Positions 5,872-64,000 of a stretch of 64,000 nucleotides of DNA are shown here, piece after piece. The first letter of the stretch is position 1. Each line of letters begins with the position of its first letter. The stretch is taken from assembly GCA_964569015.1 (NCBI GenBank), contig CAZMSN010000005.1, forward strand, positions 2,846 through 66,845. Direction: 5' to 3'. Source of the DNA: an uncultured Acidimicrobiaceae bacterium (GTDB lineage: Bacteria; Actinomycetota; Acidimicrobiia; Spongiisociales; UBA5794). The position numbers and the translations under genes were made by a program. A model generated the notes under the pieces. The model was not told where the DNA came from, did not search any database, and worked only from the letters and a program-made list of their open reading frames with translations.

Positions 5872-5895
5872 TGGGACCGGCTGGAGACCGGTTCG

Positions 5896-5967: not shown

Positions 5968-5993
5968 AGACGGACGGCTCTCGCCGCCCTCGG

Positions 5994-16086: not shown

Positions 16087-17379
16087 TCACCGGCCGCTCG
16101 GTTCACGACGATCCCAATGGGTGTGGTCGGCGCTCCCCCACCACGCCCCGGCAAGGGCCAACCGCGCCAGGTGCAGCGCCGCCGTCGTCGTGTACGCCCG
16201 CACCCGCTCCCGATCACCCGGAACCTGCAGCGATCGCGCCCGCGTTCCCTCCGGCGTGTGCACCGCGACAACCATGCTGCCCACCGGCTGTTCCTGCGGA
16301 TCGGGCCCCGCCGAGCCGGTGGTGGCGATCGCCACGTCGGCGCCCAGCAGGGCGGCCACTCCCTCCGCCATGGCACACGCCGTTGCCTCGCTGACGACGC
16401 CTTCCGTGTCGATGATCGCTCGCGGCACTCCCAGCACGCCGGTCTTGACATCCTCCTGATAGGCAACGATCGATCCCCGAAAGACCTTCGACGCGCCCGG
16501 CACCGAGGTGAGGCGGGCCGCCACCATCCCCGCGGTGGCCGATTCGGCCGTGGCGAGCTTCCAGCCATGCGCCTCCACGAGCTCGAGCACCACCCGCTCG
16601 ATCGTGTCCTCGTCGATCCCGAACACCTGCGTCCCGAGACGGCGCCGCACCTCGGCCTCGACCGGAGCGATGAGCCCGAGCGCCTCCTCCTCGGTCGCCG
16701 CCTTGGCGGTGAGCCGTACCTTGATCTCGCCGGACGAGGCGAGGAATGCCACCGTCGGGTTGACCGAGGTCTCGTACAGGTCATCGAGGATCTCTGCGAT
16801 GAGCGACTCCGACTCTCCCCAGGTCCGGATCAGTCGACTCACCACTACTGCCTCCCCACTGCCGCTCTCACGGCGCAGGAACGGCACGATGTCGTTGTCG
16901 AGCATCGGCAGCATCTCGGCCGGAACGCCGGGAACGGCGAACACCCACGCCCCCTCGATGCACATGCGCAGCCCGGGAGCCGTGCCCTTGGTGTTGGCGA
17001 TCAGCTCGGCGCCCTCCGGATACTGGGCCTGGCGCAGATTCGACTCGGGCATCTCGCGACCGCGCTCCGCCCAGCGACGGCGCAGCGTATCGGCCTGCTC
17101 CTCACTGAAGTCCATCTCTGCCCCGGCGGCGGCACAGATCGCCTCTCGTGTCACATCGTCCTGGGTCGGCCCGATGCCACCGGTGATGATCAAGGCGTCT
17201 GCTCGCCCGATTGCCAGGCGCACAGCTTCGGCGATGCGTTCCACGTTGTCGCCGACGACCGCCTGGTGGTAGTGATCGAATCCCGCCTCGGCGAGGCGGG
17301 CCCCGATCGTGGCGGCGTTGGTGTTGACGATCTGGCCCAGCAACAACTCCGTACCGACCGCGAGCACTTCGACGATCAT
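16087..17379 (-). CDS. cinA: Competence/damage-inducible protein CinA (MoCF-binding domain plus nicotinamide-nucleotide amidohydrolase)
   Basis: MIVEVLAVGTELLLGQIVNTN N-terminus and C-terminal CinA/PncC domain. ATG 17379 overlaps the rimO stop (ATGA). Confidence 0.85.
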   Translation of the reverse strand: MIVEVLAVGTELLLGQIVNTNAATIGARLAEAGFDHYHQAVVGDNVERIAEAVRLAIGRADALIITGGIGPTQDDVTREAICAAAGAEMDFSEEQADTLRRRWAERGREMPESNLRQAQYPEGAELIANTKGTAPGLRMCIEGAWVFAVPGVPAEMLPMLDNDIVPFLRRESGSGEAVVVSRLIRTWGESESLIAEILDDLYETSVNPTVAFLASSGEIKVRLTAKAATEEEALGLIAPVEAEVRRRLGTQVFGIDEDTIERVVLELVEAHGWKLATAESATAGMVAARLTSVPGASKVFRGSIVAYQEDVKTGVLGVPRAIIDTEGVVSEATACAMAEGVAALLGADVAIATTGSAGPDPQEQPVGSMVVAVHTPEGTRARSLQVPGDRERVRAYTTTAALHLARLALAGAWWGSADHTHWDRREPSGR

Positions 17380-18734
17380 CTCGCCCCCGCTCGCTTGGCG
17401 GCTGCCTCCCTGGAGGCCGTCACCTTGCCGGCGAGATCCAACCCGTAGCAGCCCGTGATCTCTGCCTCGAGCCACTCCCCCGGCCGTCCCTCGTCCAGCA
17501 GGATCACCCCATCGATCTCCGGTGCCTCCCGATACGAGCGGCCCACTGCCTGGCCCTCCTCGACCTGGTCGACCAACACCTCGAGCACCCGACCCACCTG
17601 CGCCGCGTTGCGGGAGGAGGTCACGTCGTCCTGGATCTCCTGGAGGTAGCGGAGCCGCTCCGCCTTCACCTCCTGAGGGAGTTGCCTCTCGAAGCCCGCC
17701 GCCGGCGTCCCCTCCTCCGGTGAGAACGGAAACAGACCGACCCAATCGAGCAGGGCCTCCCTGAGGAACTCCCCGAGGCTCTCCACGTCTTCGTCACATT
17801 CGCCGGGGAAACCCACGATGAAGCTCGACCGCAACGCCGCCTCGGGCGCCTCGCGACGGATCCGGGCGATCAGATCGAGATGGCTCTCACCACTCCCGGG
17901 CCGTTTCATTGCCCGCAACAAGCGCTCCGATGAGTGCTGAAGCGAAATGTCGAAGTAGTCCGCCACCACCGGGCTCGCCGCCATCGTGGAGATGAGGGCG
18001 GGCCGCACCTCGCGCGGGTACAGGTAGTAGAGGCGGAGTCGCCGCAGACCCTCCACGTCGGACACCGACTCCACCAGTTCCCTCAGCCCGCCGGACACGC
18101 CGATGTCACGCCCGTAGCCGGCCAAGTCCTGGGCGACGAGCACGATCTCCCCGACGCCTGCCGCGACGAGATCCACGATCTCTTCCCGGATGTTGGCGGG
18201 CGGTCGAGACCGCTGCCTGCCGCGGAACTGGGGGATGGCACAGAAGGTGCACGACCTGTCGCATCCCTCCGCCACCTTGACATAGGCGTACGGCATCGTC
18301 GGGGTGGGACGCCGCACCTGATACAGGATGTCCATGTGCGATCGGGGAATGGAGCAGACCCGCCGTGGCATCCACTGTGTGAGAGCGTCCAGCCGATCCA
18401 CCAGCTCGGAGTAGCGGTCGAGGCCGATGACGGCGTCGGCCTCCGGCAACGCTTCCTCGAGCTCCCGCTCGTAGCGCTGTGCCATGCATCCGATCACAAC
18501 CAGCTTGGCACCGTCCTTGCGGGCGGCCGACAACGCCAGGATCGTGTCGATCGATTCCCGGCGGGCCGACTCGATGAAGGCGCATGTGTTCACCATCACC
18601 ACGTCGGCGCGCTCGGGCGCCACCGCCCGCCGATAGCCGGCATCGTCGAGCATGCCCGTCACCTTGGCGGAATCGACCTCGTTCTTGGAACAGCCCAGCG
18701 TCGTCAGCCAGACAGAGGGAACGGTGCAGGACAT
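17376..18734 (-). CDS. rimO: Ribosomal protein S12 methylthiotransferase
   Basis: MTTase N-terminus (LGCSKNEVDS), radical-SAM CDRSCTFC and a TRAM domain. Confidence 0.85.
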   Translation of the reverse strand: MSCTVPSVWLTTLGCSKNEVDSAKVTGMLDDAGYRRAVAPERADVVMVNTCAFIESARRESIDTILALSAARKDGAKLVVIGCMAQRYERELEEALPEADAVIGLDRYSELVDRLDALTQWMPRRVCSIPRSHMDILYQVRRPTPTMPYAYVKVAEGCDRSCTFCAIPQFRGRQRSRPPANIREEIVDLVAAGVGEIVLVAQDLAGYGRDIGVSGGLRELVESVSDVEGLRRLRLYYLYPREVRPALISTMAASPVVADYFDISLQHSSERLLRAMKRPGSGESHLDLIARIRREAPEAALRSSFIVGFPGECDEDVESLGEFLREALLDWVGLFPFSPEEGTPAAGFERQLPQEVKAERLRYLQEIQDDVTSSRNAAQVGRVLEVLVDQVEEGQAVGRSYREAPEIDGVILLDEGRPGEWLEAEITGCYGLDLAGKVTASREAAAKRAGAR

Positions 18735-32478: not shown

Positions 32479-34689
32479 GTGAGACAATCAACGGTTATGC
32501 GTCAGCGCGACCAATCCGTGCTCAACGAGGTCCTCCCCCCAGAGGACCGGGTCATCGAGGCCGTGGTTGCCCGCTACCAACGGGTGGCCCCGGCCGTGAC
32601 GCGCTTCGCCCGCAGCCTCGCCGACAACGAGAACTTGGTGGTGCGGCTCGGTTCGCAGGCGGCGGGTGGAAACGACGAGATCGTGCTCGACCCCGGGGTG
32701 TTCCAGAGCGCCTATGCCCGCAGCGCGCCCGTGACGCCAGCCGAGGTGGCGCTGACCAGCGCCCTGCACGAGGTGGTACACCTCATCGCCACCGACCTCG
32801 ACGAGATGCGGCCCATCCCGCCCGTGTGGATTCCCCCACCATCCCAGAACCCGCCGCGCGAACGGGCGCCCCTGTCCTCGCCGCTCGGTCTCTTCCCGGA
32901 TGACGACCCGCCGATCGACCTCCCCCCCGAGGCCGACCCAGCCACTCCTGTCCGGCTGCTCGACGCCCTCGCCGAGGTCGGAGGACCGGCGGCCGAAGCG
33001 CTGTTCCTCTCCTTGGAGGACGCACGCCAGGAGCGCACCCTGCTCGCCGCATACGCCGGCGCCCGGTCGGTGCTGGCCGACCTCTACCGCAGCGCCACAC
33101 CACAGGCGATGCAGAACGCCCGCCCCCTCGGCCAGTTCGCCCTCGCCTGCTTCCTGGTGACCGGCGGCTACGCCGACCGCAACGGCCTCCAGCGCAGGCT
33201 CGCCCCGCACGTCGCCGCCGCCCTCGACGACGCGATGGACTGCCTCCACGATGTCCCCACCGCCGCCGGCCCCTGGGAAGTCGGAGGGCTCGCCCTGCGC
33301 CTTCTCGAGATCGCGCTCCTCCACGGCCTGGTCCAGCAGACCGACCCTTCCGATTCGCCTGCTGCCAACCGCGCCAAGGGCGAAGCGGATCGGGCGGCGA
33401 TCTCCGAGACCGTCGATGCCGTGCGCATCGTGACCCCACCGCTCCAGGACGCCGACAGCTACGACCAGACCCGCCGTGCGACCCAGGCGGTGACGGCCCA
33501 GCACGGCAAGGCCGGCGACGCCCAGCAAGCAGGAGACCCCGCCACCGATCAGGTGGTCCGTGTCAGTGAAGCGCCCACGATCTACCTCCCGACCGGCCAG
33601 AGCGGCAAGCTGCTGGTGTGCCCCTTCCCCGATCGCTTTGCTCGCCACGCCCCCGATGGGCGCCGCCTCATCGAAGAGGCCGCCTTGCGCTGGCAAGTTG
33701 CGCAGCGCCGAGTAGCCGGTGAGCTCTACCCCCTCTTCGTCGCCAACCAGCGGCGCGGGCTCCGCTCCGGCTACGACGCCGGCGACCTCTCGCCGTACGC
33801 GGCGCTCTTGCTCGGTGCCGGGCTCTACGAGCGCATGTTCGAGCGGCGCGACCTACCGTCACGACGCTCCTACGGCGTGAGCCTGCTCGTCGACGGATCG
33901 GCGTCCATGCTCCAGCCGAAGGCAACCCCCGACGGACGCAACACCCCGTGGCCGCTGGCCGCTGCCATCCTCGGCGCCTGGACCCTCGCCAACCTGTGCA
34001 ACGAGCTTCAGATCGATTTTGAGGTCGCGTTCTTCAACCGGGCGTTCGCCGCGGTCGCCGACGATACCGAGCGGGCCTTCTCCGATCGGCGCCACGCCGC
34101 CACCGGGGCGCTGCGGCGCACCCAGGGAGGGGCTGCGCCACGACTGTCTCGGACCGTCAACCACTACCTCCTCAAGCCGTTTGGTGCCCGCTGGCGGACT
34201 GCTGAGGACATCCTCGCCGGGCTCTTCTGGATGGCGGCGACGCCCTCCGACGCCGCACGCGTCGCCCGCCTCTCACCCGAGGAGGCGCCCCCGATCTCGA
34301 TGTTCGACAAGGCCGCCAACGTCGACGAGTACAACGTCGCCTACGCCGCCCGCCGGCTGGCAGGCCGCAACGTCTCGACCCGCATCCTGGTGGTGCTCGC
34401 CGACGGCATGACCCGCGGCTCGGTCGAGGATCTCGCCGCGTCCGTGCGATCGGTCGAGGGGGCCGGAGCCGTCGTGCTCGGCATCGGCATCGGCGACGAC
34501 ACCGTCCAAGCCGCCTACGATCGCAACCAAGTCGTCGAGCGCCCCGATCATCTCGCTCGCGCCATGGTCGACGGCGTTCGCTCGACCCTCTATCGCACGA
34601 TCGCCGCCGCCGGCGGCAACACCTGGTGGGCTCACACCAGCGAGCGCGCCGTCTACGATCATCCCGCCCCAAGGAGCATCGATGCCTAG
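32479..34689 (+). CDS. Large von Willebrand factor A (VWA) domain protein, CobT/NorD/CbbO-like
   Basis: 736 aa with a C-terminal VWA domain and MIDAS motif (LLVDGSASM). Its stop overlaps the start of the downstream AAA+ gene. Confidence 0.65.
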   Translation: MRQSTVMRQRDQSVLNEVLPPEDRVIEAVVARYQRVAPAVTRFARSLADNENLVVRLGSQAAGGNDEIVLDPGVFQSAYARSAPVTPAEVALTSALHEVVHLIATDLDEMRPIPPVWIPPPSQNPPRERAPLSSPLGLFPDDDPPIDLPPEADPATPVRLLDALAEVGGPAAEALFLSLEDARQERTLLAAYAGARSVLADLYRSATPQAMQNARPLGQFALACFLVTGGYADRNGLQRRLAPHVAAALDDAMDCLHDVPTAAGPWEVGGLALRLLEIALLHGLVQQTDPSDSPAANRAKGEADRAAISETVDAVRIVTPPLQDADSYDQTRRATQAVTAQHGKAGDAQQAGDPATDQVVRVSEAPTIYLPTGQSGKLLVCPFPDRFARHAPDGRRLIEEAALRWQVAQRRVAGELYPLFVANQRRGLRSGYDAGDLSPYAALLLGAGLYERMFERRDLPSRRSYGVSLLVDGSASMLQPKATPDGRNTPWPLAAAILGAWTLANLCNELQIDFEVAFFNRAFAAVADDTERAFSDRRHAATGALRRTQGGAAPRLSRTVNHYLLKPFGARWRTAEDILAGLFWMAATPSDAARVARLSPEEAPPISMFDKAANVDEYNVAYAARRLAGRNVSTRILVVLADGMTRGSVEDLAASVRSVEGAGAVVLGIGIGDDTVQAAYDRNQVVERPDHLARAMVDGVRSTLYRTIAAAGGNTWWAHTSERAVYDHPAPRSIDA

Positions 34690-35671
34690 ACCCGTCACCT
34701 TCACCGACCCGACCGGCGACGGCCCTCCCGTCGAGCTGGATTCCGTCGAGGTACCCCCGGGACTCCCCGATCGCGAGCTGCGGCTCGCCCACGTCCCGAA
34801 GCCCGATCCCTACTACGTCGACCTCGGGATGCTCTACAAGCTCGCCCAACTCGAGCAGGTCCGCCGGCTCCATTTCACCGACACTCCTCTGCATCTCGCC
34901 CTCCGGGGCCACATGGGCACCGGCAAGGACCACGACCTCGAGCAGTTCGCGGCGCTGCTCGGCATGCCCCACTACCGAATCCCCCTCACCGGTGAAGTGC
35001 GCGACATCACCCTGATCGGTTCGGTCAAGCTGCACGGAGACGGCAGGGGCGGTACCGAGAGCAGGTGGCAAGACGGCGACATCACCCGGGCCCTGCGGGG
35101 CCCCGCTCTCATCAACCTCTCGGAGTTGAACGCCGCCGGAGCCGAGACCTTGTTTGCCCTTCACGGCCTGCTCGACCGCCACCAGGCGCTCGAGCTCCCC
35201 ACCGGCGAGATGGTGCGCCTGCGAAGCGACGTGCGGGTCTTCGGGACCCTCAACCCCACCGATCTGCGCGACTATGCCGGCACCCAGACGCTCAACAAGG
35301 CTTTCGCCGACCGGTGGATCATTTGGGAGAAGGACTTCCCCGACGAAGCCCAGCTCGCCGGGATGCTCGACCGCCGCCACCCGGGCCTCAAAGCGGAATT
35401 CGTGGAGCCCATCGCCAAGCTGGCCGTCGAAGTCAACGCCTCGTTCACCTCAGCCGATGCCCGTACCCGGGTCGAGACCCCGATGAGCCTCCGCACCGTG
35501 CTCGATCGCGTCCCGGCCGGGCTCCGAGTGTACGCCGGGAGCAGCGACCCGCTGCGCGACGCCTGGGACGAGTTCGTGCTTCCTCACATCGATCCCTTCG
35601 ATCGAGATCACTATGAGACGGTGTGGGCGGCAGTGGTGCGGCACGGACCCGCCGGGCCGCCCTTCGCCTGA
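34682..35671 (+). CDS. MoxR/CobS-like AAA+ ATPase with non-canonical Walker motifs
   Basis: Walker A-like GHMGTGKD, Walker B-like ALINLSELNAA, sensor-1 VFGTLNPTD and ...NKAFADRW (MoxR/CobS pattern). The start overlaps the upstream VWA gene. Confidence 0.65.
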   Translation: MPRPVTFTDPTGDGPPVELDSVEVPPGLPDRELRLAHVPKPDPYYVDLGMLYKLAQLEQVRRLHFTDTPLHLALRGHMGTGKDHDLEQFAALLGMPHYRIPLTGEVRDITLIGSVKLHGDGRGGTESRWQDGDITRALRGPALINLSELNAAGAETLFALHGLLDRHQALELPTGEMVRLRSDVRVFGTLNPTDLRDYAGTQTLNKAFADRWIIWEKDFPDEAQLAGMLDRRHPGLKAEFVEPIAKLAVEVNASFTSADARTRVETPMSLRTVLDRVPAGLRVYAGSSDPLRDAWDEFVLPHIDPFDRDHYETVWAAVVRHGPAGPPFA

Positions 35672-53043: not shown

Positions 53044-53256
53044 GTGCTCAGGACGGCGCCGACCCCGCCGGCGGCATCGGATCGAGATGGGTGTACTCCC
53101 CGGTTCGCAGGTGGCATGCCGCCTGGTGGGTGGACCACCAGGCGCAGAAGCTGGCCGATTCCGCGCTCTCAGGCACTGCGGCGCGGCCGCGAAGCGTCGT
53201 TGCGGGGTGAGGGACATGCCTTGGATGGGCGGGCGCCATGCAATACTCTCCCAGCA

Positions 53257-54453
53257 ATGGAACGTGTCCTCGTCGTCAACGGGCCGAACCTCAATCTGCT
53301 GGGAACACGAGAGCCGGAGGTCTACGGGACCACCACGCTCCCCCAGCTCGAGGCATCGCTCCAAGCGTGGGGCGGCGAGCTGGGCGTCGCTGTCGAGACC
53401 TACCAGTCGAACCACGAGGGCGGCATCATCGATCGTCTCCACGCCGCCGCAGGCAAGGTGGATGGCGTGGTGCTCAACGCCGGGGCCTACACCCACTCCA
53501 GCTACGCCATCCACGACGCGATCCTCGCTTCGGGCCTCCCCACCGTCGAGGTGCACATCTCCAACATCCACGCCCGGGAGCCCTGGCGCCGCATCTCACT
53601 CACGGCGCCCGCCTGCGTCCACACCATCTACGGCCGCGGGCTCGCCGGGTACCGTCACGCCCTGCGTCACCTGTTCTGGCATGAGGCGTGGCCGGCCGTT
53701 CCCGTCCACTACGGGGACGGTCCCGACCACCTAGCCGACCTCCGGGTGCCGGAGGGCGCCGGTCCGTTCCCAGTGGCTGTGCTCATTCACGGTGGCTTCT
53801 GGCGTGACCCGTGGACCCGCGACCTGATGGACGGCCTCGGCGTCGATCTGGCGCGCCGCGGCTGGGCCACCTGGAACGTCGAGTACCAGAGGGTCGGCGC
53901 CGGCGGAGGCTGGCCAACGACCATGACGGATGTAGGCGCCGCCATCGACTCTCTCGCCAATCTCGTCGACGAGCACCATCTCGACCTCGACCGGGTCGTC
54001 GCCCTTGGCCACGAGGCCGGGGGACAACTCGCCCTGTGGGCTGGAGCTCGTCCTCACCTGTCGGACGACACCCCGGACCCCGGCGCCGTCGTCACGGTGG
54101 CGGCCGCCGCCGGCCTGGCACCGCTGTGCGATCTCGCCGAGGCGCATCGCCTCGATCTGGGCAACGGCGCCGTCGCCCGCTATCTGCGGCGCACCCCCGA
54201 CGACGGACCGCGCCGCTATGCCCTCTCCTCGCCACTCGCCCTGCTTCCCCTCGGCATCCCCCAGGTCATCGTTCACGGTGGGGCCGACGACCACATCCCG
54301 GTCCAGATGAGCCGCGACTACGCAGGCGATGCCGCCCAACGGGGAGACACGGTCGTCTATCACGAGATCGAGAACGCCGGGCACGATGACCTCGTCGATC
54401 CCGCCTCCGACGCCTGGCGGGTCGTGGTCGACGAGCTGGACGGGCTGTTCTGA
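53257..54453 (+). CDS. aroQ: 3-dehydroquinate dehydratase type II fused to an alpha/beta-hydrolase-fold domain
   Basis: N-terminal about 145 aa carries type II DHQase motifs (VLVVNGPNLNLLGTREPEVYG, NAGAYTHSS, HISN). The C-terminal about 250 aa has an esterase-like fold (HGGFW oxyanion motif) with GHEAGG in place of GxSxG. Confidence 0.75.
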   Translation: MERVLVVNGPNLNLLGTREPEVYGTTTLPQLEASLQAWGGELGVAVETYQSNHEGGIIDRLHAAAGKVDGVVLNAGAYTHSSYAIHDAILASGLPTVEVHISNIHAREPWRRISLTAPACVHTIYGRGLAGYRHALRHLFWHEAWPAVPVHYGDGPDHLADLRVPEGAGPFPVAVLIHGGFWRDPWTRDLMDGLGVDLARRGWATWNVEYQRVGAGGGWPTTMTDVGAAIDSLANLVDEHHLDLDRVVALGHEAGGQLALWAGARPHLSDDTPDPGAVVTVAAAAGLAPLCDLAEAHRLDLGNGAVARYLRRTPDDGPRRYALSSPLALLPLGIPQVIVHGGADDHIPVQMSRDYAGDAAQRGDTVVYHEIENAGHDDLVDPASDAWRVVVDELDGLF

Positions 54454-54463
54454 GGAAGGCTTC

Positions 54464-55678
54464 TCAGCCGGAGCGCTGCACCAGGTCCTGAAGACGCCGC
54501 AGACCCTCCTCGAGGTCGGCATCAGCGAGCGCGAACGAGAAACGGGCGTAGCCCGGCGCCCCGAACGCCTCGCCGGGAACGATGGCGACGTTGATCGTGT
54601 CGAGCAGCAACGTGGCGAGTTCCAGCGTCGTGGCCGCCGAGCCTGCTCCGAGCGGCCGGTTCAGGAGTCCCTTCATGGACGGGAAGGCGTAGAACGCGCC
54701 TTGTGGTTCCGGGCACACCACACCGTCGACGGCGTTGAGCATCTCGCACATCGTGCGTCGCCTCCGGTCGAATGCCGCCCTCATCTCGACGACGAGATCC
54801 ATCGGGCCTTCGAGGGCGGCCAAGGCAGCCCGCTGGCTGACGTTGGCGACGTTCGACGTCGTGTGGCTCTGCAACCGGATGGCTCCGGCTGCGACCGCCG
54901 GCGGGCCGATCAGCCACCCCACCCGCCAGCCGGTCATGGCGTAGGTCTTGGCGACGCCGTTGACGACGACACAGCGCGGCGCCGCGGAGGGAGCCTCCAC
55001 CGGCATCGAGCTGAACGTGGCGTCGCCGTATACGAGATGCTCGTAGATCTCGTCGGTCATGATCCAGATGCCGTGGTCGGCGGCCCATTCTCCGATGGCC
55101 CTCACCTCGTCGGCCGGGTAGACGGCACCGGTCGGGTTGGACGGGGAGACGAACACGAGCATCTTGGTGCGCGGGGTCCGGGCCGCCTCGAGCTGGTCGA
55201 CGGTGACCCGGTAGCCGGTGGTCTCGTCGGCCTCCACCACCACCGGGACCCCGTCGGCGAGCCGCACCGCCTCCGGGTAGGTCACCCAGTAGGGGGCGAG
55301 GAGCAGCGCTTCGTCCCCGGGATCGAGCAGCACCTGGCAGGTGGCGTACACGGCCTGCTTGGCACCGTTGGTGATGACGACCTGAGACGACTCGACGGCG
55401 TAGCCCGATTCGCGCCGCGTCTTGGCGGCCACAGCCTCCCGCAGCTCGGGCAGCCCGGCCGCCGGCGTGTAGTGGTGGTTGCGAGGGTCGGCGGCTGCCG
55501 CGATCGCGGCGTCCACGACGAATTGCGGCGTCGGGAAATCGGGCTCTCCCGCCCCGAATCCGATCACTGGTTTGCCTTCGGCACGCAGTGCCTTGGCCTT
55601 GGCTGTGATGGCTAGAGTCGCTGACTCTGCGACACCTGCGATGCGCTGCGACAGCTCGCCTGGGACCGCACCGGACAT
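54464..55678 (-). CDS. aspC: Aspartate aminotransferase (class I PLP aminotransferase)
   Basis: Fold-type I motifs ([10 protein letters not shown]-Lys region [12 protein letters not shown]). Confidence 0.8.
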
Positions 55679-55743
55679 TGCTCTAGCCTCCCGTCGTACG
55701 CTCAGCGTTTCCATTCGAGCCGCACGATACCCGGGGTAACCAA

Positions 55744-56865
55744 ATGACAGACAATCCAGAAATCCCGCTCCCAGCCGACATCGTTCCCGACGACGGGAGG
55801 TTCGGTTCGGGGCCGTCGAAGGTGCGAACCGAGATCCTCATGGAGCTCGGAGTCACCGGCTCCGGTTACATGGGGACCAGCCACCGGAGACCCGGCGTGC
55901 GCAGCGTGGTGGCTGCGATCCGTGCCGGCCTCACTGAGATGTTCTCACTGCCGGGCGGCTACGAGGTGGTCCTGGGTGTCGGAGGCGCGACGTTGTTCTG
56001 GGACGCCGCCTCGTTCGGCCTGATCCAGCGCCGCAGCCAGCACCTGGTGTTCGGAGAGTTCTCCGGCAAATTCGCTGCGGTGGCCGCGGCGGCGCCCCAC
56101 CTCGAGGATCCGCAGATCATCGAATCGGAACCGGGAAGGCATCCGCTGCCGGTGGCCGATCCGGACATCGATCTCTACGCCTTCACCCACAATGAGACCT
56201 CGACCGGAGTGATGATGCCGATCGAGCGGCCGGACGGCTCATCAGGCCTCGTGGCCGTCGATGCCACGTCCGGCGCCGGAGCGATGACGGTCGACCCGTC
56301 CCACTTCGACGCCTACTACTTCTCCCCGCAGAAGGTCTTCGGAGCCGAGGGCGGCTTGTGGGTGGCGCTGTGCTCACCCGCCGCAGTGAACCGCATCGAT
56401 CAGATCGCCGCCTCGGACCGATGGATCCCGCCGACCCTGTCGCTGGCAACCGCGCTCTCCAACTCGCGTAAGGACCAGACCTATAACACGCCGGCACTGG
56501 CAACACTGTTCCTCCTCCGCCGTCAGATCGACACCATGCTCGAGCTCGGCGGGCTCGAATGGGCGGTCGAGCGTTGCCAGGAGTCGTCGTCAATCGTCTA
56601 CGCATGGGCGGAGTCCCGCGACTACACCACGCCTTTCGTGACCGATGTCGCGATGCGCAGCACCACCGTGGCCACGATCGATTTCGTGTCCGACGTAGAC
56701 GCCAACACGGTGGCCGCGGTGTTGCGCTCCAACGGCATCGTGGACACGGAGAGCTACCGCAAGTTGGGGCGCAATCAGCTCCGGATCGCCATGTTCCCGA
56801 ACATCGAGCCGTGCGATCTCGAGAAGTTGACGGCGGCCATCGACTACATCGTCGAGCGCCTCTAG
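55744..56865 (+). CDS. serC: Phosphoserine aminotransferase (actinobacterial type)
   Basis: FGSGPSKV N-terminus, [15 protein letters not shown]-Lys region, 373 aa. Confidence 0.8.
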
Positions 56866-56906
56866 GACACTGCGGCCCAGCCGGCCGCGGCGCAGGCGGC
56901 CGCGTC

Positions 56907-57419
56907 TCAGCCCCGGAGTCGCTCGCTCAGGTCACCGATCTTCTCACCGCGGGAAAACTCGAATCGAAGATCGTGCCCCTCCGCCCGAAAGGCGAGGTGG
57001 TGGGGCCGCAGCAGCCGCCCCGGCCGATACCGCACCGCGCCGACGGAGGACCGGCAGTATGCGGCCGCCAAGGCGTCGCGCGAGTCCCCGAGAGCCCGGT
57101 CGAGGACCAACACCCGGCGCGTCGTCACCGCCAGGGTGACGTAGGGGCCGGTCAGGCGCGGGTCGTGGCGCCGGGCCATCGGCCGGCCCACCAGGAGCAG
57201 CACTGTCACGAAGCCGGCGACGACGATTCCCACGATGGCCGCCGCCCCCGTCCAGAATCCGAGGTTGGCGGCCCGCGGCACGGTGAGCGCGATCAGCACC
57301 GACACGGCGCCACCCAGGCTGGACCACGTCGTGAAACCCTCGATCACTCCCTGCACGGATGCCTCGAGTTTCTCACCCGCCTCGAGTTGAGTCTCGACCG
57401 CCGCTTCTCGTCGCGCCAT
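56907..57419 (-). CDS. Membrane protein with bacterial PH-like domain
   Basis: Two TM helices followed by a PH-like C-terminal segment. No further motif. Confidence 0.45.
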   Translation of the reverse strand: MARREAAVETQLEAGEKLEASVQGVIEGFTTWSSLGGAVSVLIALTVPRAANLGFWTGAAAIVGIVVAGFVTVLLLVGRPMARRHDPRLTGPYVTLAVTTRRVLVLDRALGDSRDALAAAYCRSSVGAVRYRPGRLLRPHHLAFRAEGHDLRFEFSRGEKIGDLSERLRG

Positions 57420-57485
57420 CTCGCCGCCTTCTCACCGGCTCGGCTGCATTCCTCCTCCAGAAGCTACTTCGGTATCGTGGCGCGC

Positions 57486-57998
57486 ATGAAACAGCTCCTG
57501 GTGATGCGGCACGCCAAATCCGACTGGGGAGGCGAGGTCGCCGATCACGACCGCCCCCTCAATCGCCGGGGCAAGGCCTCGGCGACCGTGATGGGACAGG
57601 TACTGACCCTCATGGACCACGAGCCTCAGCTCATCTACAGCTCGACTGCGGTGCGGGCCCGCACCACAGCCGAGCTCGCCGCCGGCGCCGGTGGCTGGGG
57701 CGCCGAGATCGAGCTGATCCCCGAGCTGTACGGCACCTCCTCCGCCAACGCCCTCGACGTCGTCAGCAGGGCCCCGCGGGCGATCCGCTCCCTGATGATC
57801 GTCGGACACCAGCCGACCTGGGGCGATCTCGTATCTGAGCTCACCGGATCCAACGCCCAGATCAGGACCGCATCGGTGATCGGCATCGATCTGGCGATCC
57901 TGGAATGGACGGAGACCCGCACCGGGCGCGCCGAGCTCGCGTTCGCCCTCCACCCCCGGCTGTTCATGGAAGGCAAATGGGGCGACCTGTTCGACTGA
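57486..57998 (+). CDS. sixA: Histidine phosphatase (SixA-like phosphohistidine phosphatase)
   Basis: RHAKS (RHG-like) motif at the N-terminus and IVGHQP near the C-terminus. Confidence 0.65.
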   Translation: MKQLLVMRHAKSDWGGEVADHDRPLNRRGKASATVMGQVLTLMDHEPQLIYSSTAVRARTTAELAAGAGGWGAEIELIPELYGTSSANALDVVSRAPRAIRSLMIVGHQPTWGDLVSELTGSNAQIRTASVIGIDLAILEWTETRTGRAELAFALHPRLFMEGKWGDLFD

Positions 57999-58268
57999 GC
58001 GGCCGTGTCCTCGAAGGGAGCCAGGCGAAAGGATCCCCGGCGGACGACTCTCGGCTCGGGCCTGCGGCGCGAAGGTGCCGGCACGACCTACACCAAGAGA
58101 CGGCCCAGCCTGCCGGATGCACCGCTGCGCTCACTACGATGAGGGCGCCGCCGGGATGCTGATGGAGCGGGTGCCTGTGGTGAGAGCCACCGGCCAACCA
58201 GTTGATGCAACACCGGCACGCACCGTGGTCGAGCATTGTCCTGGAGAGAAGCGGTAGGGGAATCGAAA

Positions 58269-58604
58269 ATGAGAATCGCGGTACCAGTGAGTGACGGCGT
58301 CCTCTGCCGCCACTTCGGCCACTGCACGACGGTGGCCTTGTTCGAAGTGGACCCCGACACGTCGACCATCCAATGCCGACAGGACCTGATCCCGCCGCCT
58401 CACGAGCCCGGAGTCCTTCCCCGCTGGCTCAACGAGCAGGAAGCCACGGTCATCATCAGCGGCGGCATGGGAAGACGGGCACAGGACCTCTTCGCCCAGA
58501 ACGGCATCACCGTGGTCGTTGGCTCGGTCGGCGAGCCCGAGACGATCGTCGAGGACTACCTGGACGGCCGGTTGGAGACGGACGACAACTTCTGCGACCA
58601 CTGA
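58269..58604 (+). CDS. NifX/NafY-like dinitrogenase FeMo-cofactor-biosynthesis-domain protein
   Basis: MRIAVPVSDGVLCRHFGHC signature of the NifB/NifX C-terminal domain family. ATG 58269 is preceded by GGAGAG/GGGGAA. Confidence 0.6.
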   Translation: MRIAVPVSDGVLCRHFGHCTTVALFEVDPDTSTIQCRQDLIPPPHEPGVLPRWLNEQEATVIISGGMGRRAQDLFAQNGITVVVGSVGEPETIVEDYLDGRLETDDNFCDH

Positions 58605-58642
58605 CCCGTCCGCCCGGACACCGGGCAGAAAGACAGAACCTG

Positions 58643-59545
58643 GTGAGGACCGAGCTCGAATGCATCCCGTGTCTCTTGAGGCAGAGCCTCGAGGCAGCCC
58701 GGTTCGTCACCGAGGACCCTGCCATCCACGAGCTCGTGATGCGGGAGACCTTGCGCACGGTGGCCGACCTGGACTTCCTCGAGTCGCCACCCACGATTGC
58801 GCAGGTCGTTCACCGCAGGCTGCGTGAGCTCACAGGTGACCCCGACCCCTATCGGTCGGCCAAGGCTGCCGCCAATCGCCTCGTCATGGCATTGCTGCCG
58901 GAGCTGGCCGCCGACGTGGAGCGGGCGCCCGACCCACTGCTGGCAGCGGTCCGGCTGGCGATCGCAGGCAACGTCATCGACCTGGCAATAACCGCCGATC
59001 TCACCGAGGCCGTGACCTGTCGGGCGCTGCAAGACGCGTCACGCGAGCCGTTCCACGGCGAGTGGACGGAGTTCCGCCGAGCACTGGCCGACGCGACGGA
59101 CATTCTCTATCTGGCGGACAACGCCGGCGAGATCGTCACCGACCGCCTGCTCATCGAGCAGATCGGCCCGGCGCGGGTGACCATGGCCGTCCGTGGCCAC
59201 GCGGTCATCAACGACGCAACTCTCGCCGATGCGCGCGATGTCGGTCTCTGCGAACTCGTCGAGGTGGTTTCCAACGGCTCGGACGCGCCGGGCACGATCC
59301 TCGACGACTGCGATGCCTCGTTTCGCGAGCGATTCCGGAACGCCGATCTGCTGATCGCCAAGGGACAAGGCAACTTCGAGACGCTCAGTCACGCCGAGGA
59401 CGACGAGGACACGAAAGACGGCGTCTTCTTCCTCTTCAAGGTGAAATGCCCGGTGGTCGCCGGCCAGGTCAACCTGCCGGTCGGTTCCCAGGCGCTGGTT
59501 CAAGCCCATCCGACCCGGCCCGTGCTCGATCCCGGAACCGCCTGA
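58643..59545 (+). CDS. DUF89/ARMT1-family metal-dependent phosphatase-like protein
   Basis: N-terminal ELECIPCLLRQ and C-terminal DNAGEIV...KGQGNFE motifs. GTG 58643 lies 38 nt after the NifX-like stop. Confidence 0.55.
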   Translation: MRTELECIPCLLRQSLEAARFVTEDPAIHELVMRETLRTVADLDFLESPPTIAQVVHRRLRELTGDPDPYRSAKAAANRLVMALLPELAADVERAPDPLLAAVRLAIAGNVIDLAITADLTEAVTCRALQDASREPFHGEWTEFRRALADATDILYLADNAGEIVTDRLLIEQIGPARVTMAVRGHAVINDATLADARDVGLCELVEVVSNGSDAPGTILDDCDASFRERFRNADLLIAKGQGNFETLSHAEDDEDTKDGVFFLFKVKCPVVAGQVNLPVGSQALVQAHPTRPVLDPGTA

Positions 59546-59643
59546 GCAAGCACACGGCTCCCTTGGAAGCCGGCGCCGTCATGGCAACCGGTCGAACCGC
59601 AGCCGCCTCCGGAGCGGCAGATCGATTCCGCCGTACTCCCCGG

Positions 59644-60648
59644 TCACGACCCGGTCAGGGCGAGCCCCACCATGCCGACGATGGCGATCACCGCGCCCAC
59701 GAAATACCACGGCGGCGGCCGGTGCTTCTCCAGCCACCTGGCGAACGGAACGCTGATCAGGGGGGCAACGGCGGCGATCGCCTGTACCTTGCCCGGCTGC
59801 ATGGTCTGCAGTGCCCAGACCATGCAGGTGACGCCGAGGATGGGGCCAAACAGGGCGTTGGCGCCGACCCAGGGCCATGCCTTCTCCGGCGGCGACTCGG
59901 CGCTCTCGTCGGCATCGCCGGCATCGGCGGTGACGCCTTCGACGGGGGTCCCCGCCGGACCGAGCGCGGCCCGGGCCCACGAAACGCGCCGGGAAGCCCA
60001 CCACACCGCCAGGAACACCAACAGCGCCACACAGAAGCCGCCGGTGAGGCGATCGAAGGCGGCCGTGAACACGTAATCGAAGCTGCTGCCGACCTTCACC
60101 TTCGGGCCGTCGGGAACAGCCTGCACCGTCTGCTGAACAGCGATCAGAGCCTTGCGGCTGATCACAGCGCTGATCCCCTGTGCGATCGCCGCGATGCACG
60201 CCAGCGTCACACCACTCGCCGCCCCGACCCGCCGGGCGGCGCCCCTCACGTAGGGGAGCAGGCCGATGACCACTCCGGCCAGGACCACCAGGCACCAGAC
60301 GATCTCCTCGCCGGTGAGCCGATCGGAGAACCACACCCAGGCCAGCACGGCAGCGGCGAAGGCGGCCACGGTCTCTACCACCAGTGAGGCCAGCGGCGCC
60401 CCCAGCGGCGGCAGTGCCCGGAACATCGCCAGCCCCCCGATGCCGAACCCGATCGCCCCCGCGGTAGCGAACATCCAGTACTCGGTGCCGAGGCCCCTGC
60501 CGACGGTGAATGCCAGCACGCCGATCACACCCAGGGCAATCAGCAGCCGCAGCAGATTGGCCCTCACAAACCCGAGCAGCCGGATGGCGCGTCGGGCACA
60601 GACCGGGGTGATGCCGTAGAACAGTGCGGTGAGGCTGGCCCCGATCAA
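59644..60648 (-). CDS. EamA/DMT-superfamily transporter
   Basis: About 10 TM helices in two EamA repeats. TTG start overlaps the stop of the NuoE-like gene. Confidence 0.65.
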   Translation of the reverse strand: MIGASLTALFYGITPVCARRAIRLLGFVRANLLRLLIALGVIGVLAFTVGRGLGTEYWMFATAGAIGFGIGGLAMFRALPPLGAPLASLVVETVAAFAAAVLAWVWFSDRLTGEEIVWCLVVLAGVVIGLLPYVRGAARRVGAASGVTLACIAAIAQGISAVISRKALIAVQQTVQAVPDGPKVKVGSSFDYVFTAAFDRLTGGFCVALLVFLAVWWASRRVSWARAALGPAGTPVEGVTADAGDADESAESPPEKAWPWVGANALFGPILGVTCMVWALQTMQPGKVQAIAAVAPLISVPFARWLEKHRPPPWYFVGAVIAIVGMVGLALTGS

Positions 60649-61148
60649 CCTGCGGCACCCCGGAGCGCAGCGACGATGTCGGTGACCTTCTCCGGGGTGA
60701 GGTCGCCGTATGCCTCGTCGTTCACCAGCATCGCCGGGGCCTGGTCACACATGCCGATGCAGTTGGCCCACTCCAGCGTGAACAGTTCGTCCTCGGTTGT
60801 CTCCCCAAATGACACGCCCAGCTCGCGCTCGAGCTGATCGGCCACCGCCTGCTTGCCTGCGAACTCGCAGCTGAGCGTCCGGCACATCCGGATCACATAG
60901 CGGCCGGTTCGTCGTGTGCCGAGGAACGAGTAGAACGTGGCCACCCCATAGACCTCGACGGGTGGCACGTCCAGCCGGTCGGCGATCACCTGCATCGCCA
61001 GGTCGCCGATCTCCCGATACCGCTCGCGTAGGTCCTGCAGCACGGGGATGAGCGCATCGCGGCTCCGTCCGTGGCGCTCCACCAGAGCGTCGATCTCGTC
61101 GACCAGCTCCGCCTGTTGCGCGGTCAGCTCGGGTGGCACGGTCAGCAT
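60645..61148 (-). CDS. NuoE-like [2Fe-2S] thioredoxin-fold subunit (HydC/HndA-type)
   Basis: CRTLSCEFAG ... CIGMCDQAP cluster-binding motifs. The ATG overlaps the HydA stop. Confidence 0.8.
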   Translation of the reverse strand: MLTVPPELTAQQAELVDEIDALVERHGRSRDALIPVLQDLRERYREIGDLAMQVIADRLDVPPVEVYGVATFYSFLGTRRTGRYVIRMCRTLSCEFAGKQAVADQLERELGVSFGETTEDELFTLEWANCIGMCDQAPAMLVNDEAYGDLTPEKVTDIVAALRGAAG

Positions 61149-63118
61149 GCGGAATCCTCCCTCTCACGATCACCGCCGGCGGCTATGAACGTCCCCCGCG
61201 CGGTGTACTCGGTGTGCAGCAGATGGTGACTGGTGTGCCCACACGGGCCGTCCGTGAGCAGCTCCTGGTAGAGACGGAGCACCGCCGGGTTCTCGTGGCT
61301 CTTGCGTGCCCGGCCCGCCTCGCCGTAGGCGGAATCCTCGGCGTAGATGGCCCTGGCCCGTGCTGCGCGGATCTCCGGAGTCGTCGGGATCGGCTGACCG
61401 CCACCGCCGAGGCATCCTCCCTCGCACGCCATGAACTCGATGAAGTGACACTCGCTGAACTTCCCACCCGCCTTGATGTCCTCCATCACCTTGTGGGCGT
61501 TGGCGGTGCCGTGCGCCACCGCCAGCTTCAGCGTCGCTCCCCGCAGCCAGTCCCAGTTGGGAACCAGGTGCGCGATCAGCTCGGGCACCGGGCCCACCTC
61601 ATCGGGGATCGTCAGCTCGACATAGCGGCACCCTTCGAAACCACGGACCGGCACGATGTCGGCGTGCTCGAACAGGCTCTCCACTTTCGTTCCGGTGACG
61701 AACTCGACGACGCTGCGCAGTGCCGCTTCCATGACGCCGCCGGTGGCCCCGAAAATCACGCCTGAACCGCTGGCGGTCCCGAACGGGTCGTCGAAATCGC
61801 TCTCGGGCATGTCCGGCAGGTGGATGCCCGCCTCTCGGATCATCTTCGCCAGTTCGCGGGTGGTCAGGGCGCAGTCGACGTCCTGGTAGCCGCTGTCGCT
61901 CATCTCGGGACGCTCGCACTCGTACTTCTTCGCCGCGCACGGCATCAACGACACGGAGACGACGTTGGCGGGATCGAGGCCGTTCGCTTCGGCGTACCAG
62001 GTCTTGATCAGCGATCCGAACATCTGCTGCGGGCTCTTGCACGTCGACACGTTCGGCAGGTACTCGGGGTAGAAGTGCTCGATGTACTTCACCCAGCCCG
62101 GGCTGCACGACGTGAACTGGGGCACCGGCTGCGAATCGTCGCCGAGCACCAGGTTCTTGTAGAGCCGCAGGATGAGCTCGGTGCCCTCCTCGATGATGGT
62201 GAGGTCGGCGGCGAAGTTGGTGTCGAAGACCCGGTCGAAGCCGCACTCCCGCAATGCCGTGTTCATGTGCCACGTCATCGGGGTGCCCGGCTCCTGGCCA
62301 AACTCCTCACCGATGGCCGACCGCGGCGCCGGGGCGGTCTGGATGACGACATGCTTGGCGGGATCCTCGATGGCGACCCACACCTCGTCGGTGGAATCGA
62401 CCGCCTGGAGCGCCCCGGTCGGGCAGCGGTTGATGCACTGCCCGCAGTTGATGCAGACCACGTCGGCCAGCGGCAGGTCCAGGTAGGTGGAGATCGTGGT
62501 CCGGTCGCCGCGACCGACTACGCCGACCGCGCTCACGCCTTGCATCTCAGCGCAGGTGCGCACGCAACGCAGGCACTGGATGCACTTGTTCATGTCCCGC
62601 ACGATCGAGGAGCCAATGCGGTCGATCGGCAGGGGCGGCCGGTCACTGGTGCCGAGCCGGAACGAATCCACGCCGTACTCAACAGCGAGGTCCTGCAGCT
62701 CGCAGTTGCCGTTGCGCACACAGGTGATGCAGGCGCCCTGGTGCTCGGAGAGCAGCAGGTCGATGACGTCCCTGCGGGCCCTGCGGACCCGAGAGCTGTG
62801 AGTGTGCACCTCCACCGGCGCCGTGATCGGGAAGGCGCAGCTCGCCTGGAGGTTCCGCTGCCCGGAGACCTCGACCACACAGACACGGCAGACGCCGGCC
62901 TCGGGCAGGTCCGGGTGGTGGCACAGTGTCGGGATGGTGATACCGCACTGCTGGGCGGCATCGAGGATGCTCGTCCCCAGAGGGACCCCCACCTGCCTGC
63001 CGTCGATGGTGACCTCAACTGTCCCGATGGCTGCGGTGTCTGCTCCGCCTTCGAGGGTTCCGACGCTCGTCTCAGGCGCTGCCGCATCGCGGTCGGGGCA
63101 GGAATCTTGTTTGCTCAT
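61142..63118 (-). CDS. hydA: [FeFe]-hydrogenase catalytic subunit (HydA, M3 type)
   Basis: N-terminal 2Fe-2S and His-ligated and 2x[4Fe-4S] ferredoxin-like domains (CIQCLRCVRTC, CINCGQCINRCP). H-cluster motifs L1 FTSCSPGW (variant), L2 MPCAAKKYE, L3 EFMACEGGCLGGGGQP. ATG 63118 is preceded by GAGGAG. Confidence 0.85.
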   Translation of the reverse strand: MSKQDSCPDRDAAAPETSVGTLEGGADTAAIGTVEVTIDGRQVGVPLGTSILDAAQQCGITIPTLCHHPDLPEAGVCRVCVVEVSGQRNLQASCAFPITAPVEVHTHSSRVRRARRDVIDLLLSEHQGACITCVRNGNCELQDLAVEYGVDSFRLGTSDRPPLPIDRIGSSIVRDMNKCIQCLRCVRTCAEMQGVSAVGVVGRGDRTTISTYLDLPLADVVCINCGQCINRCPTGALQAVDSTDEVWVAIEDPAKHVVIQTAPAPRSAIGEEFGQEPGTPMTWHMNTALRECGFDRVFDTNFAADLTIIEEGTELILRLYKNLVLGDDSQPVPQFTSCSPGWVKYIEHFYPEYLPNVSTCKSPQQMFGSLIKTWYAEANGLDPANVVSVSLMPCAAKKYECERPEMSDSGYQDVDCALTTRELAKMIREAGIHLPDMPESDFDDPFGTASGSGVIFGATGGVMEAALRSVVEFVTGTKVESLFEHADIVPVRGFEGCRYVELTIPDEVGPVPELIAHLVPNWDWLRGATLKLAVAHGTANAHKVMEDIKAGGKFSECHFIEFMACEGGCLGGGGQPIPTTPEIRAARARAIYAEDSAYGEAGRARKSHENPAVLRLYQELLTDGPCGHTSHHLLHTEYTARGTFIAAGGDREREDSAC

Positions 63119-63143
63119 GCTGATTCTCCTCTGCTTCCTGCGC

Positions 63144-64000
63144 TCAGACCGCCGCAGCGGCGCGGTCGAGGATCTCGGACCGGTGATGCTCGACGATGGA
63201 CAGGAAGACGTTCGGACTGGATTGCCCCAGCCCGCACTTCGAGGCCACCTGCATCGTGCTTCCCAGGTCACACAACTCTTGGAGGTAGCCGGTGGAGCAC
63301 TCCCCACGTTTCAGCATGCGGATCCCGTTCAGGATCTTGACGTTGCCCACCCGGCACGGAGTGCACTGCCCACAGGACTCGTCGACAAAGAACTCCATGA
63401 AGTTCTCGGCCACGTCCAGCAGGTCGCGGTCCGGGCCGATCACGATCACTGCACCCCCGGTTGCCACGTCCTCGTAGCAGATCCCCCGGGAGAACTCGGC
63501 GGCGGGCACGCATCGCCCGGAGGCTCCCCCGACGACGACCGCCTTGGCTTCCTCGCCACCGGCCGCTGCCAGCAGGTCCCGGATCGTGACTCCCATCGGG
63601 AACTCATACACACCCGGGCGTTCCACGTCACCCGAGATGCTCAGCAGCTTGGGACCGGTGGAGCCATCGGTGCCGATGCCCTTGAACCACTCGACGCCGT
63701 TGGCCAGGATGGCAGCCGCCCAGGCGAAGGTCTCGACGTTGTTCACCGTCGTCGGCAGCCCGTGCAGGCCGGTGCTCACCGGGAAGGGGGGACGGTTCCG
63801 CGGCTCGCCCCGCTTGCCCTCCAGGCTCTCGAGCAACGCCGTTTCCTCTCCACACACGTACGCTCCCGACCCCATGTGAATGTGGATATCGAAGTCGAAA
63901 CCCTCGTTGCCCATGACGCCGGCTCCGAGCAGGTTCGCGTTCCGGCGCCGTCCCAGACATTCCTCGAGCCGGTCCCGCAGATAGGTGTACTCGGCCCGCA
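63144..64000 (-). CDS. NuoF-like FMN/NADH-binding flavoprotein subunit of the hydrogenase (HydB/HndC), 5' end beyond window
   Basis: GSGAYVCGEETALLESLEG and 4Fe-4S ESCGQCTPCR motifs. The reading frame stays open to the window edge. Confidence 0.8.
   Translation of the reverse strand, partial: RAEYTYLRDRLEECLGRRRNANLLGAGVMGNEGFDFDIHIHMGSGAYVCGEETALLESLEGKRGEPRNRPPFPVSTGLHGLPTTVNNVETFAWAAAILANGVEWFKGIGTDGSTGPKLLSISGDVERPGVYEFPMGVTIRDLLAAAGGEEAKAVVVGGASGRCVPAAEFSRGICYEDVATGGAVIVIGPDRDLLDVAENFMEFFVDESCGQCTPCRVGNVKILNGIRMLKRGECSTGYLQELCDLGSTMQVASKCGLGQSSPNVFLSIVEHHRSEILDRAAAAV

Follow-up and report, generated by a model that had tools for sequence, protein, structure and literature searches.

Which kind of hydrogenase is encoded at the edge of a 64,000-nucleotide stretch of chromosome from an uncultured Acidimicrobiaceae bacterium (contig CAZMSN010000005.1; the whole stretch is referred to here as the window), and does the enzyme couple NAD(H) to ferredoxin? 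Four minus-strand genes at one end of the window code for a NuoF-like flavoprotein (HydB), a catalytic [FeFe]-hydrogenase subunit (HydA), a NuoE-like subunit (HydC), and an EamA-family membrane protein, and the initial annotation took them for a bifurcating hydrogenase of the HydABC/HndABCD type. The trimeric, NAD(H)-linked HydABC layout is confirmed, but the bifurcating and HndABCD assignments do not hold, as HydB is short and has the residues T/K/Y and GGASG at its diagnostic positions. We conclude that the enzyme is very probably a trimeric cytoplasmic [FeFe]-hydrogenase that depends on NADH and does not bifurcate, of the S. wolfei Hyd1ABC kind (NCBIfam group A6), and that it adds one ordinary member to a family that is known, widespread, and already annotated.

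A hydB-hydA-hydC-eamA operon

The open reading frame (ORF) listing and the Pfam matches agree on the identity and minus-strand placement of all four genes proposed earlier (Table 1). We read hydB-hydA-hydC-eamA as one operon because the junctions are tightly packed or overlapping: hydB and hydA are separated by 25 nt, the hydA stop and hydC start overlap by 7 nt, and the TTG start of eamA overlaps the TGA stop of hydC as TTGA (60648–60645), a coupling that had already been noted. The hydA ORF extends to 63307 (61142–63307), and conservation points to the ATG at 63118 as its start. Shine-Dalgarno-like sequences precede hydA (GAGGAG) and hydC (GGGAGG). HydC belongs to the thioredoxin-like [2Fe-2S] family PF01257 and has exactly four cysteines (C89, C94, C130, and C134). 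The predicted masses of HydA, HydB, and HydC are 70.9, 41.8, and 18.5 kDa.

HydB is short and carries non-bifurcating signatures

As anticipated in the initial annotation, the N-terminus of HydB lies beyond position 64000, although this amounts to only 110 codons. An exact look-up of HydC identified 13 metagenome contigs and, with the P0122 look-up, contigs reach 4.0–4.9 kb past the window edge; we took the full-length HydB from two of these, L001 and L002 (reaching 4.0 and 4.9 kb, respectively), which match the window at 99.9% identity across the 3.4–5.6 kb that they share with it. The complete protein has 394 residues and matches three Pfam domains only: Complex1_51K, which holds the flavin mononucleotide (FMN) and NADH sites, SLBB, and a single NADH_4Fe-4S. 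Only ~20 residues precede the FMN domain, and seven follow the NADH_4Fe-4S domain. Among its 11 cysteines, C319, C322, C325, and C365 (CxxCxxC...C) are the ligands of an N3-type [4Fe-4S] cluster, and we found no further cluster motif in the full-length protein. Alignments to the bifurcating structures 7t2r_B, 7q4v_B, and 7p5h_B cover just their central residues, ~143–523.

These features can be compared with two published descriptions of the family. Schut 2022 describes the Bfu family as sharing a BfuBC core that is invariant and in which BfuB holds five clusters (B1–B5); every true Bfu enzyme has B2–B5, and non-bifurcating homologues, including the S. wolfei FeFe-hydrogenase, lack them (PMC9304861). 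Losey 2020 distinguishes bifurcating subunits, with A and M at TmHydB positions 232 and 234, F at the FMN site, and GGPSG, from non-bifurcating ones of ~400–434 residues, which have T/S and K/S/A, then Y, and another pentapeptide (PMC7311640). The window HydB carries the motifs GRGGAGFPTG (FMN site), EPG-T-F-K-DR, GSGA-Y-VCGEET, and GGASG, so that its diagnostic residues T76, K78, Y157, and GGASG (267–271) all fall on the non-bifurcating side. HydB is thus classed as non-bifurcating because it is short, lacks the additional Fe-S domains, and is T/K/Y/GGASG throughout.

In a neighbor-joining tree, the window HydB groups with the Ignavibacterium album protein YP_005845236, apart from the A. mobile, A. 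woodii, and NfnB sequences and from 661-residue paralogues encoded at Melioribacter loci. Those paralogues have at least 30 cysteines and AM/F/GGPSG, and the same regular expressions applied to A. mobile, A. woodii, and NfnB also return AM/F/GGPSG; the Losey table likewise gives AM/F/GGPSG for Melioribacter (PMC7311640).

A bifurcating (confurcating) HydABC/Bfu- or Hnd-type enzyme, in which oxidation of NADH and reduced ferredoxin is jointly coupled to H2 production, would share the trimeric NuoF/HydA/NuoE layout; HydA finds its best Protein Data Bank (PDB) matches in the bifurcating enzymes of A. woodii and T. kivui, HydB finds its own among bifurcating BfuB proteins, and HydDB-style schemes usually place trimeric enzymes in group A3, as in Zheng & Huang 2024 (PMC11406978). 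We nonetheless regard this as very unlikely, since the full-length HydB lacks both the N-terminal [2Fe-2S] (B5) and the C-terminal B2–B4 region that all true Bfu enzymes have according to Schut 2022 (PMC9304861), and deletion of the HydB C-terminus left low bifurcation activity in Katsyv 2023 (PMC10021017). Moreover, each of the three residue signatures matches the non-bifurcating enzymes, and several related genomes hold a separate bifurcating-type cluster nearby, which argues for different roles. The Hnd version also fails on gene content: neither an HndB-like fourth gene nor an added small Fe-S gene lies between or beside the three redox subunit genes, and there is no long HndC.

HydA has an intact catalytic site

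HydA matches the Pfam families Fer2_4, NADH-G_4Fe-4S_3, Fer4_Nqo3, Fe_hyd_lg_C (1e-84), and Fe_hyd_SSU (5e-19), and all of its F-cluster Cys/His ligands are kept, in agreement with the earlier description of an M3-type protein with the complete set of accessory Fe-S domains. Its score against NCBIfam NF040763 ("NADH-dependent [FeFe] hydrogenase, group A6") is 768.8 bits, the cut-off being 765. The three H-cluster motifs are present, P1 as TSCSPGW (336–342), P2 as MPCAAKKYE (392–400), and P3 as EFMACEGGCLGGGGQP (561–576), and the proton-path residues E311, E314, R318, and S358 and the relay cysteine C338 are intact. With all H-cluster motifs and C338 in place, HydA does not fit a Nar1/NARF-like protein, a grouping that the initial annotation had named as refuting its reading, or a sensory (group C/D) one; Pfam reveals no PAS or kinase domain in it, and its score against TIGR04105 (B1) is far under the cut-off.

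The second serine of TSCSP deserves comment. We considered whether it marks the loss of the proton-relay cysteine and rejected this, as Ser339 takes the place of CpI C300 (S301 in A. woodii), which ligates the [4Fe-4S] part of the H-cluster, and the relay cysteine (CpI C299) is kept. The same Ser301 ligand occurs in the active A. woodii HydA1, which has an ordinary H-cluster signature by Fourier-transform infrared (FTIR) spectroscopy (Katsyv 2023; PMC10021017), and serine is frequent at this position, position 5, of P1 (Zheng & Huang 2024; PMC11406978). TSCSP is present at 79 of the 80 related loci described below, and from these alignments the serine ligand is a family trait and no defect. 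A second family feature is an insert of ~24 residues, VGPVPELIAHLVPNWDWLRGATLK (residues ~505–530), which is strongly conserved in the family across phyla and is not found in CpI or in the HydA proteins of A. woodii and T. kivui. The window HydA has one residue changed relative to the metagenome copies, and its exact 658-residue sequence had no match in the look-up.

Several observations weigh against the non-bifurcating assignment or against a working enzyme. The margin over the NF040763 cut-off is just 3.8 bits, and the closest PDB entry to HydA is the A. woodii HydA1 (7q4v_A; 1.4e-174); because this nearest solved relative belongs to a bifurcating enzyme, the non-bifurcating call depends wholly on HydB. 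Syntrophobotulus and Desulfitobacterium subunits that Losey 2020 predicted to be non-bifurcating fell outside the window clade in our small HydB tree, suggesting that the "non-bifurcating" set may comprise more than one clade. Only the enzymes of S. wolfei and S. aciditrophicus are known to form H2 from NADH, and to reduce NAD+ with H2, independently of ferredoxin (PMC7311640). The maturase genes hydE, hydF, and hydG are absent by tblastn (E ≤ 1e-5) from the 64-kb window and from L001 and L002 (4.9 kb beyond it), and none adjoins any locus with the gene order hydB-hydA-hydC (B-A-C). Upstream of hydB there is no Rex-type redox operator (allowing up to three mismatches) and no recognizable promoter, and the promoter and terminator scan yielded nothing exceeding the expectation from shuffled sequence.

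A gene order particular to an actinobacterial clade

A protein search with HydA returned thousands of homologues at E ≤ 1e-100, and the best 120 are all at least 68% identical; these come from Phycisphaerae, Demequinaceae, Actinotalea, Thermoleophilia, Vicinamibacterales, and others. Several relatives, at 75–77% HydA identity, are already labeled group A6 by NCBI. A genome scan identified 80 related loci, with a top HydA match of 83%, including ones in Acidimicrobiia, Demequinaceae, Actinomycetales, Thermoleophilia, and the cultured Actinotalea fermentans. The short T/K/Y HydB precedes HydA at every one of the 80 whose upstream region is present. The earlier view that such a hydrogenase is uncommon in Actinobacteria is therefore overstated: close relatives occur in several actinobacterial groups and already carry NCBI names. 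A literature search found no discussion of the enzyme in Acidimicrobiia or Actinotalea.

Gene order divides the family. The order C-B-A is found in Planctomycetota, Thermoleophilia, Ignavibacteria, Hydrogenedentota, and others, often with hydG, hydF, and hydE 3' of hydA. The B-A-C order is confined to one monophyletic HydA clade made up of Actinomycetes and Acidimicrobiia only, within which the window is sister to two Acidimicrobiia metagenome-assembled genomes (MAGs). The HydA identity of 70–83% that is maintained across phyla, together with a clade tree that matches taxonomy, indicates purifying selection.

Recent horizontal acquisition was also considered. The wider family is scattered across phyla; however, we saw no sign of a recent transfer, as the GC content of the operon (0.66–0.67) equals the window mean and is flat at 0.66–0.69 over the operon and its surroundings, and the clade tree tracks taxonomy.

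A membrane protein gene lies 3' of hydC in most of the B-A-C clade. It is an EamA gene in the window's own population and at seven other B-A-C loci, which span three subclades and whose EamA genes are 46–72% identical to that of the window; the cultured Actinotalea fermentans has a B-A-C operon with EamA. At four EamA-less B-A-C loci, hydC is followed by a gene for a conserved ~115-residue protein with about four hydrophobic helices, and in three of the four the next plausible same-strand gene resembles gyrB/parE. As judged from these sequences, what sets the window's enzyme apart is its membership in an actinobacterial clade with its own B-A-C gene order and a linked membrane protein gene; the EamA protein is probably co-transcribed, and we assign it no role. 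A bolder proposal would make the B-A-C operons a distinct, undescribed actinobacterial lineage of non-bifurcating enzymes, with the hydC-coupled membrane protein as a functional partner and with the ~24-residue insert and the serine tuning the H-cluster for chemistry at the NADH potential. We think this unlikely; if true, the membrane protein (EamA/DMT or the small four-helix protein) might tether the soluble enzyme to the membrane or serve as an exporter of a fermentation product.

Other hydrogenase genes occur near some of the related loci. Melioribacter and Thermoleophilia genomes have a second hydrogenase cluster 6–8 kb upstream of the short-HydB operon; in Melioribacter it has a 661-residue HydB with AM/F/GGPSG and is of the bifurcating type. 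Many of the second clusters add a HydA-like protein at 25–28% identity that is possibly sensory. In an Actinotalea sp., ~5 kb from the hydB-A-C operon, there is an 842-residue fusion of Pyr_redox_2, ferredoxin, and [FeFe]-hydrogenase domains, a second and different [FeFe]-hydrogenase-like gene in an actinomycete.

Sequences beyond the window edge and maturation

The initial annotation held that hydE, hydF, and hydG must lie beyond position 64000, but the next 4.9 kb hold other genes. Following a 226-nt spacer 5' of hydB there are same-strand GH1 and GH3 genes and the 3' part of a GH94 gene, an arrangement that resembles a cellodextrin/beta-glucoside utilization cluster beside the hydrogenase. 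The GH1 adjacency is retained in the nearest MAG contig, L007.

The maturase queries used here were HydG, HydF, and HydE from related loci, all of which score above the NCBIfam cut-offs, and the sole radical-SAM gene of the window codes for a RimO/MiaB-type methylthiotransferase. At 27 loci, family relatives have hydG, hydF, and hydE directly 3' of hydA, again above the NCBIfam cut-offs, and we infer from these adjacent genes that the family is matured; maturation of the enzyme at this locus is presumed. Maturase genes are often unlinked to hydrogenase genes. A HydG homologue search for actinobacterial maturases was uninformative, its top 120 matches all being of the Planctomycetota type. A GC-biased HydG DNA pattern matched 115 stretches in metagenomes. 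Among these, a 1.6-kb contig of 67% GC (L149; Ga0307419_10059514) carries the 3' end of a divergent hydG, 58% identical to the Planctomycetota type, followed by hydE, and its sample identifier is adjacent to those of the window's population (Ga0307422 and Ga0307439). This fragment could hold the maturase genes of the window's organism or of a relative, but it is not assignable to that organism.

The absence of maturase genes from the 64 kb, the further 4.9 kb, and all B-A-C flanks, together with the serine that replaces a cysteine ligand of the H-cluster [4Fe-4S], could be taken to mean that the locus is a non-functional relic, or that HydA is a Nar1/NARF-like or sensory protein without accompanying maturases. 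We give this hardly any credence: the three genes are intact; cluster ligands, relay cysteine, and full proton path are conserved; and the level of HydA identity across phyla and the taxonomy-like tree indicate purifying selection. In addition, the active A. woodii enzyme has the same serine ligand with a normal H-cluster FTIR signature (PMC10021017), family members elsewhere carry adjacent maturases, and the PAS or kinase domains of sensory group C proteins are lacking.

Predicted electron path and physiology

For a non-bifurcating enzyme of this composition we propose the following path. NADH would bind at HydB and reduce its FMN, from which electrons would pass singly, via the one N3-type [4Fe-4S] of HydB, with the [2Fe-2S] of HydC beside the flavin, into the F-clusters of HydA (one [2Fe-2S], one His-ligated [4Fe-4S], and two [4Fe-4S]). 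At the H-cluster, protons arriving through an R318-E314-S358-E311-C338 relay would be reduced to H2. The reaction is predicted to be reversible and to have no ferredoxin site. Because the operon follows same-strand GH94, GH3, and GH1 genes, its likely role would be to reoxidize glycolytic NADH in anoxic fermentation of sugar (beta-glucan) by an Acidimicrobiia-related bacterium, with the direction in the cell set by the H2 scavenging of its neighbors. The electron path, direction, and physiology are all derived from sequence, and the enzyme could equally run in reverse, from H2 to NADH.

At −320 mV, NADH reduces less strongly than the H+/H2 couple does at 1 atm (−414 mV), so net H2 evolution from NADH alone would be expected only at very low H2 partial pressure. 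In keeping with this, Losey 2020 gives 2.2–40.2 Pa H2 from NADH without ferredoxin for recombinant non-bifurcating HydAB (PMC7311640).

The same enzyme could serve mainly in uptake, as a soluble NAD+-reducing hydrogenase of largely respiratory Acidimicrobiia that harvest sediment H2 under anoxia. Non-bifurcating enzymes that have been characterized work reversibly and can use H2 to reduce NAD+ (PMC7311640), electron flow from H2 to NAD+ is downhill at all but trace H2 by established redox potentials, and no fermentation-specific genes (those for pyruvate:ferredoxin oxidoreductase or Rnf) were seen in the annotated parts of the window. Against this stand the position of the operon directly after beta-glucoside/cellodextrin genes and the GH1 adjacency kept in the nearest MAG. 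Cultured bacteria that carry the family, Actinotalea fermentans and Melioribacter among them, are sugar fermenters. Direction is not set by sequence alone, and we judge a mainly uptake role unlikely.

The distinction between bifurcating and non-bifurcating enzymes matters because the default label of "bifurcating" for trimeric [FeFe]-hydrogenases leads to the wrong energetics. A bifurcating enzyme requires reduced ferredoxin and can evolve H2 at high partial pressure, whereas NADH suffices for the short-HydB type, which would be an H2 producer only where partners hold H2 at pascal levels. A non-bifurcating assignment would predict an NADH/H2 valve, tied to beta-glucan breakdown, that leaks H2 and is either syntrophy-dependent or reversible. 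It does not predict the strictly anaerobic lifestyle that the initial annotation associated with this architecture; an anaerobic or fermentative capability of the host is plausible. Hydrogenases of Actinomycetota are usually discussed as [NiFe] enzymes, and the short-HydB family is widespread in this phylum. Knowledge of the enzyme class itself is unchanged by the locus.

Host and other features of the window

By inspection, the window is core actinobacterial chromosome, with recA, lexA, miaA, dapF, ftsK, an RNase J gene, dapA, and dapB. Positions 53216–64000, including serC and aroQ, are syntenic with an Acidimicrobiaceae MAG contig at ~78% nucleotide identity, which bears out the actinobacterial host proposed earlier. 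A Nitro_FeMo-Co and DUF89 gene pair converges on the eamA end and is unmatched at the nucleotide level in the otherwise syntenic L007. Other features are a dehydroquinase–hydrolase fusion, a gene without a Pfam match overlapping an ATPase gene, and a tRNA cluster that is the window's only Rfam match.

Table 1. Locations of the features discussed; positions refer to the window unless a contig is named
Feature	Location	Strand	Basis or remark
hydB, NuoF-like flavoprotein	63144..64000	-	3' 284 codons and stop in the window; Pfam Complex1_51K, SLBB, NADH_4Fe-4S
hydB, full length	L001:3711-4895		394 residues
hydA, catalytic [FeFe]-hydrogenase subunit, 658 residues, M3	61142..63118	-	Pfam, NCBIfam NF040763, motifs
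hydA codon for Ser339, H-cluster [4Fe-4S] ligand position	62102..62104	-	Alignment to CpI and A. woodii
hydA segment for the ~24-residue insert	~61529-61606	-	Conserved in the family
hydC, NuoE-like [2Fe-2S] subunit, 167 residues	60645..61148	-	PF01257 1.2e-46, four Cys
eamA-family (DMT) membrane protein, 334 residues	59644..60648	-	Pfam EamA 1.2e-20, two stretches
GH94 (partial; cellobiose/cellodextrin-phosphorylase-type), GH3, GH1	L002:3-4381		Same strand as hydB, directly upstream
~115-residue four-helix protein	L009:5904-6257, L023:3696-4055, L028:12456-12803, L031:12633-12980		3' of hydC
Second hydrogenase clusters	L045, L057, L065, L073 at ~850-4900; L039, L047, L052, L055, L058 at ~1800-3800
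Pyr_redox_2, ferredoxin, [FeFe]-hydrogenase fusion	L087:1309-3837		Actinotalea sp.
hydG (3' end), hydE	L149:1-1573
RimO/MiaB-type methylthiotransferase	17376-18734
NifX/NifB-like Nitro_FeMo-Co domain protein	58269-58604	+	111 residues
ARMT1-like/DUF89 damage-control phosphatase	58643-59545	+	300 residues
Type II dehydroquinase (AroQ) fused to BD-FAE/alpha-beta-hydrolase domain	53254-54453	+	399-residue ORF
Protein without Pfam match and AAA_5 (MoxR/dynein-type) ATPase	32479-35671	+	736 and 329 residues; genes overlap by 8 nt
tRNA-Gly(GCC), tRNA-Cys(GCA), tRNA-Val(GAC)	5799-6066	-	Rfam

Comparison with known systems

Several known systems invite comparison. Zheng & Huang 2024 described a "BAC" order, which they called unreported (PMC11406978); theirs is sub-type III, with a long B and a doubled B5, whereas the window's B-A-C operon has a short B and belongs to Actinomycetota. 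In the same study, the Hydrogenedentota sub-type II BfuABC has a BfuB without B5 and B3/B4, which the authors read as non-bifurcating; serine is common at P1 position 5, and Hydrogenedentota loci are among the family relatives at 69–71% HydA identity.

The A. woodii HydABC(D) enzyme (PDB 7Q4V) shares with the window HydA the M3 F-cluster set and the serine of TSCSP. Its HydB, however, has 599 residues, five Fe-S clusters, and A/M/F/GGPSG, as against 394 residues, one cluster, and T/K/Y/GGASG in the window, and it bifurcates to ferredoxin, whereas the window enzyme is predicted to lack a ferredoxin branch.

The short HydB of Ignavibacterium album is 56% identical to that of the window over its full length, with the same T/K/Y/GGASG and the same clade in the HydB tree, and was predicted to be non-bifurcating by Losey 2020 (PMC7311640). 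In the Melioribacter/Ignavibacteria operons of the family, the partner HydA is 66–69% identical and has TSCSP; these loci differ in having the C-B-A order, in lacking EamA, and in lying next to a second cluster of the bifurcating type.

The closest functional counterpart would be S. wolfei Hyd1ABC, a likeness drawn from published features and not from sequence identity. The two share the cofactors of HydA (an H-cluster, three [4Fe-4S], and one [2Fe-2S]), those of HydB (FMN and one [4Fe-4S], with an NADH site and SLBB), and the one [2Fe-2S] of HydC; the window HydB is T/K/Y without GGPSG, and its HydA passes the family model. The S. wolfei subunit masses of 63.0, 43.9, and 17.5 kDa in the Losey table (PMC7311640) are similar to those predicted here. 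The window operon differs in its B-A-C order, set against the C-B-A order of other phyla, in the eamA gene coupled to hydC, and in a HydA with ~33 extra N-terminal residues and the family-specific insert. The hosts differ as well, S. wolfei being a Firmicute syntroph and the window's host an Acidimicrobiia-related bacterium.

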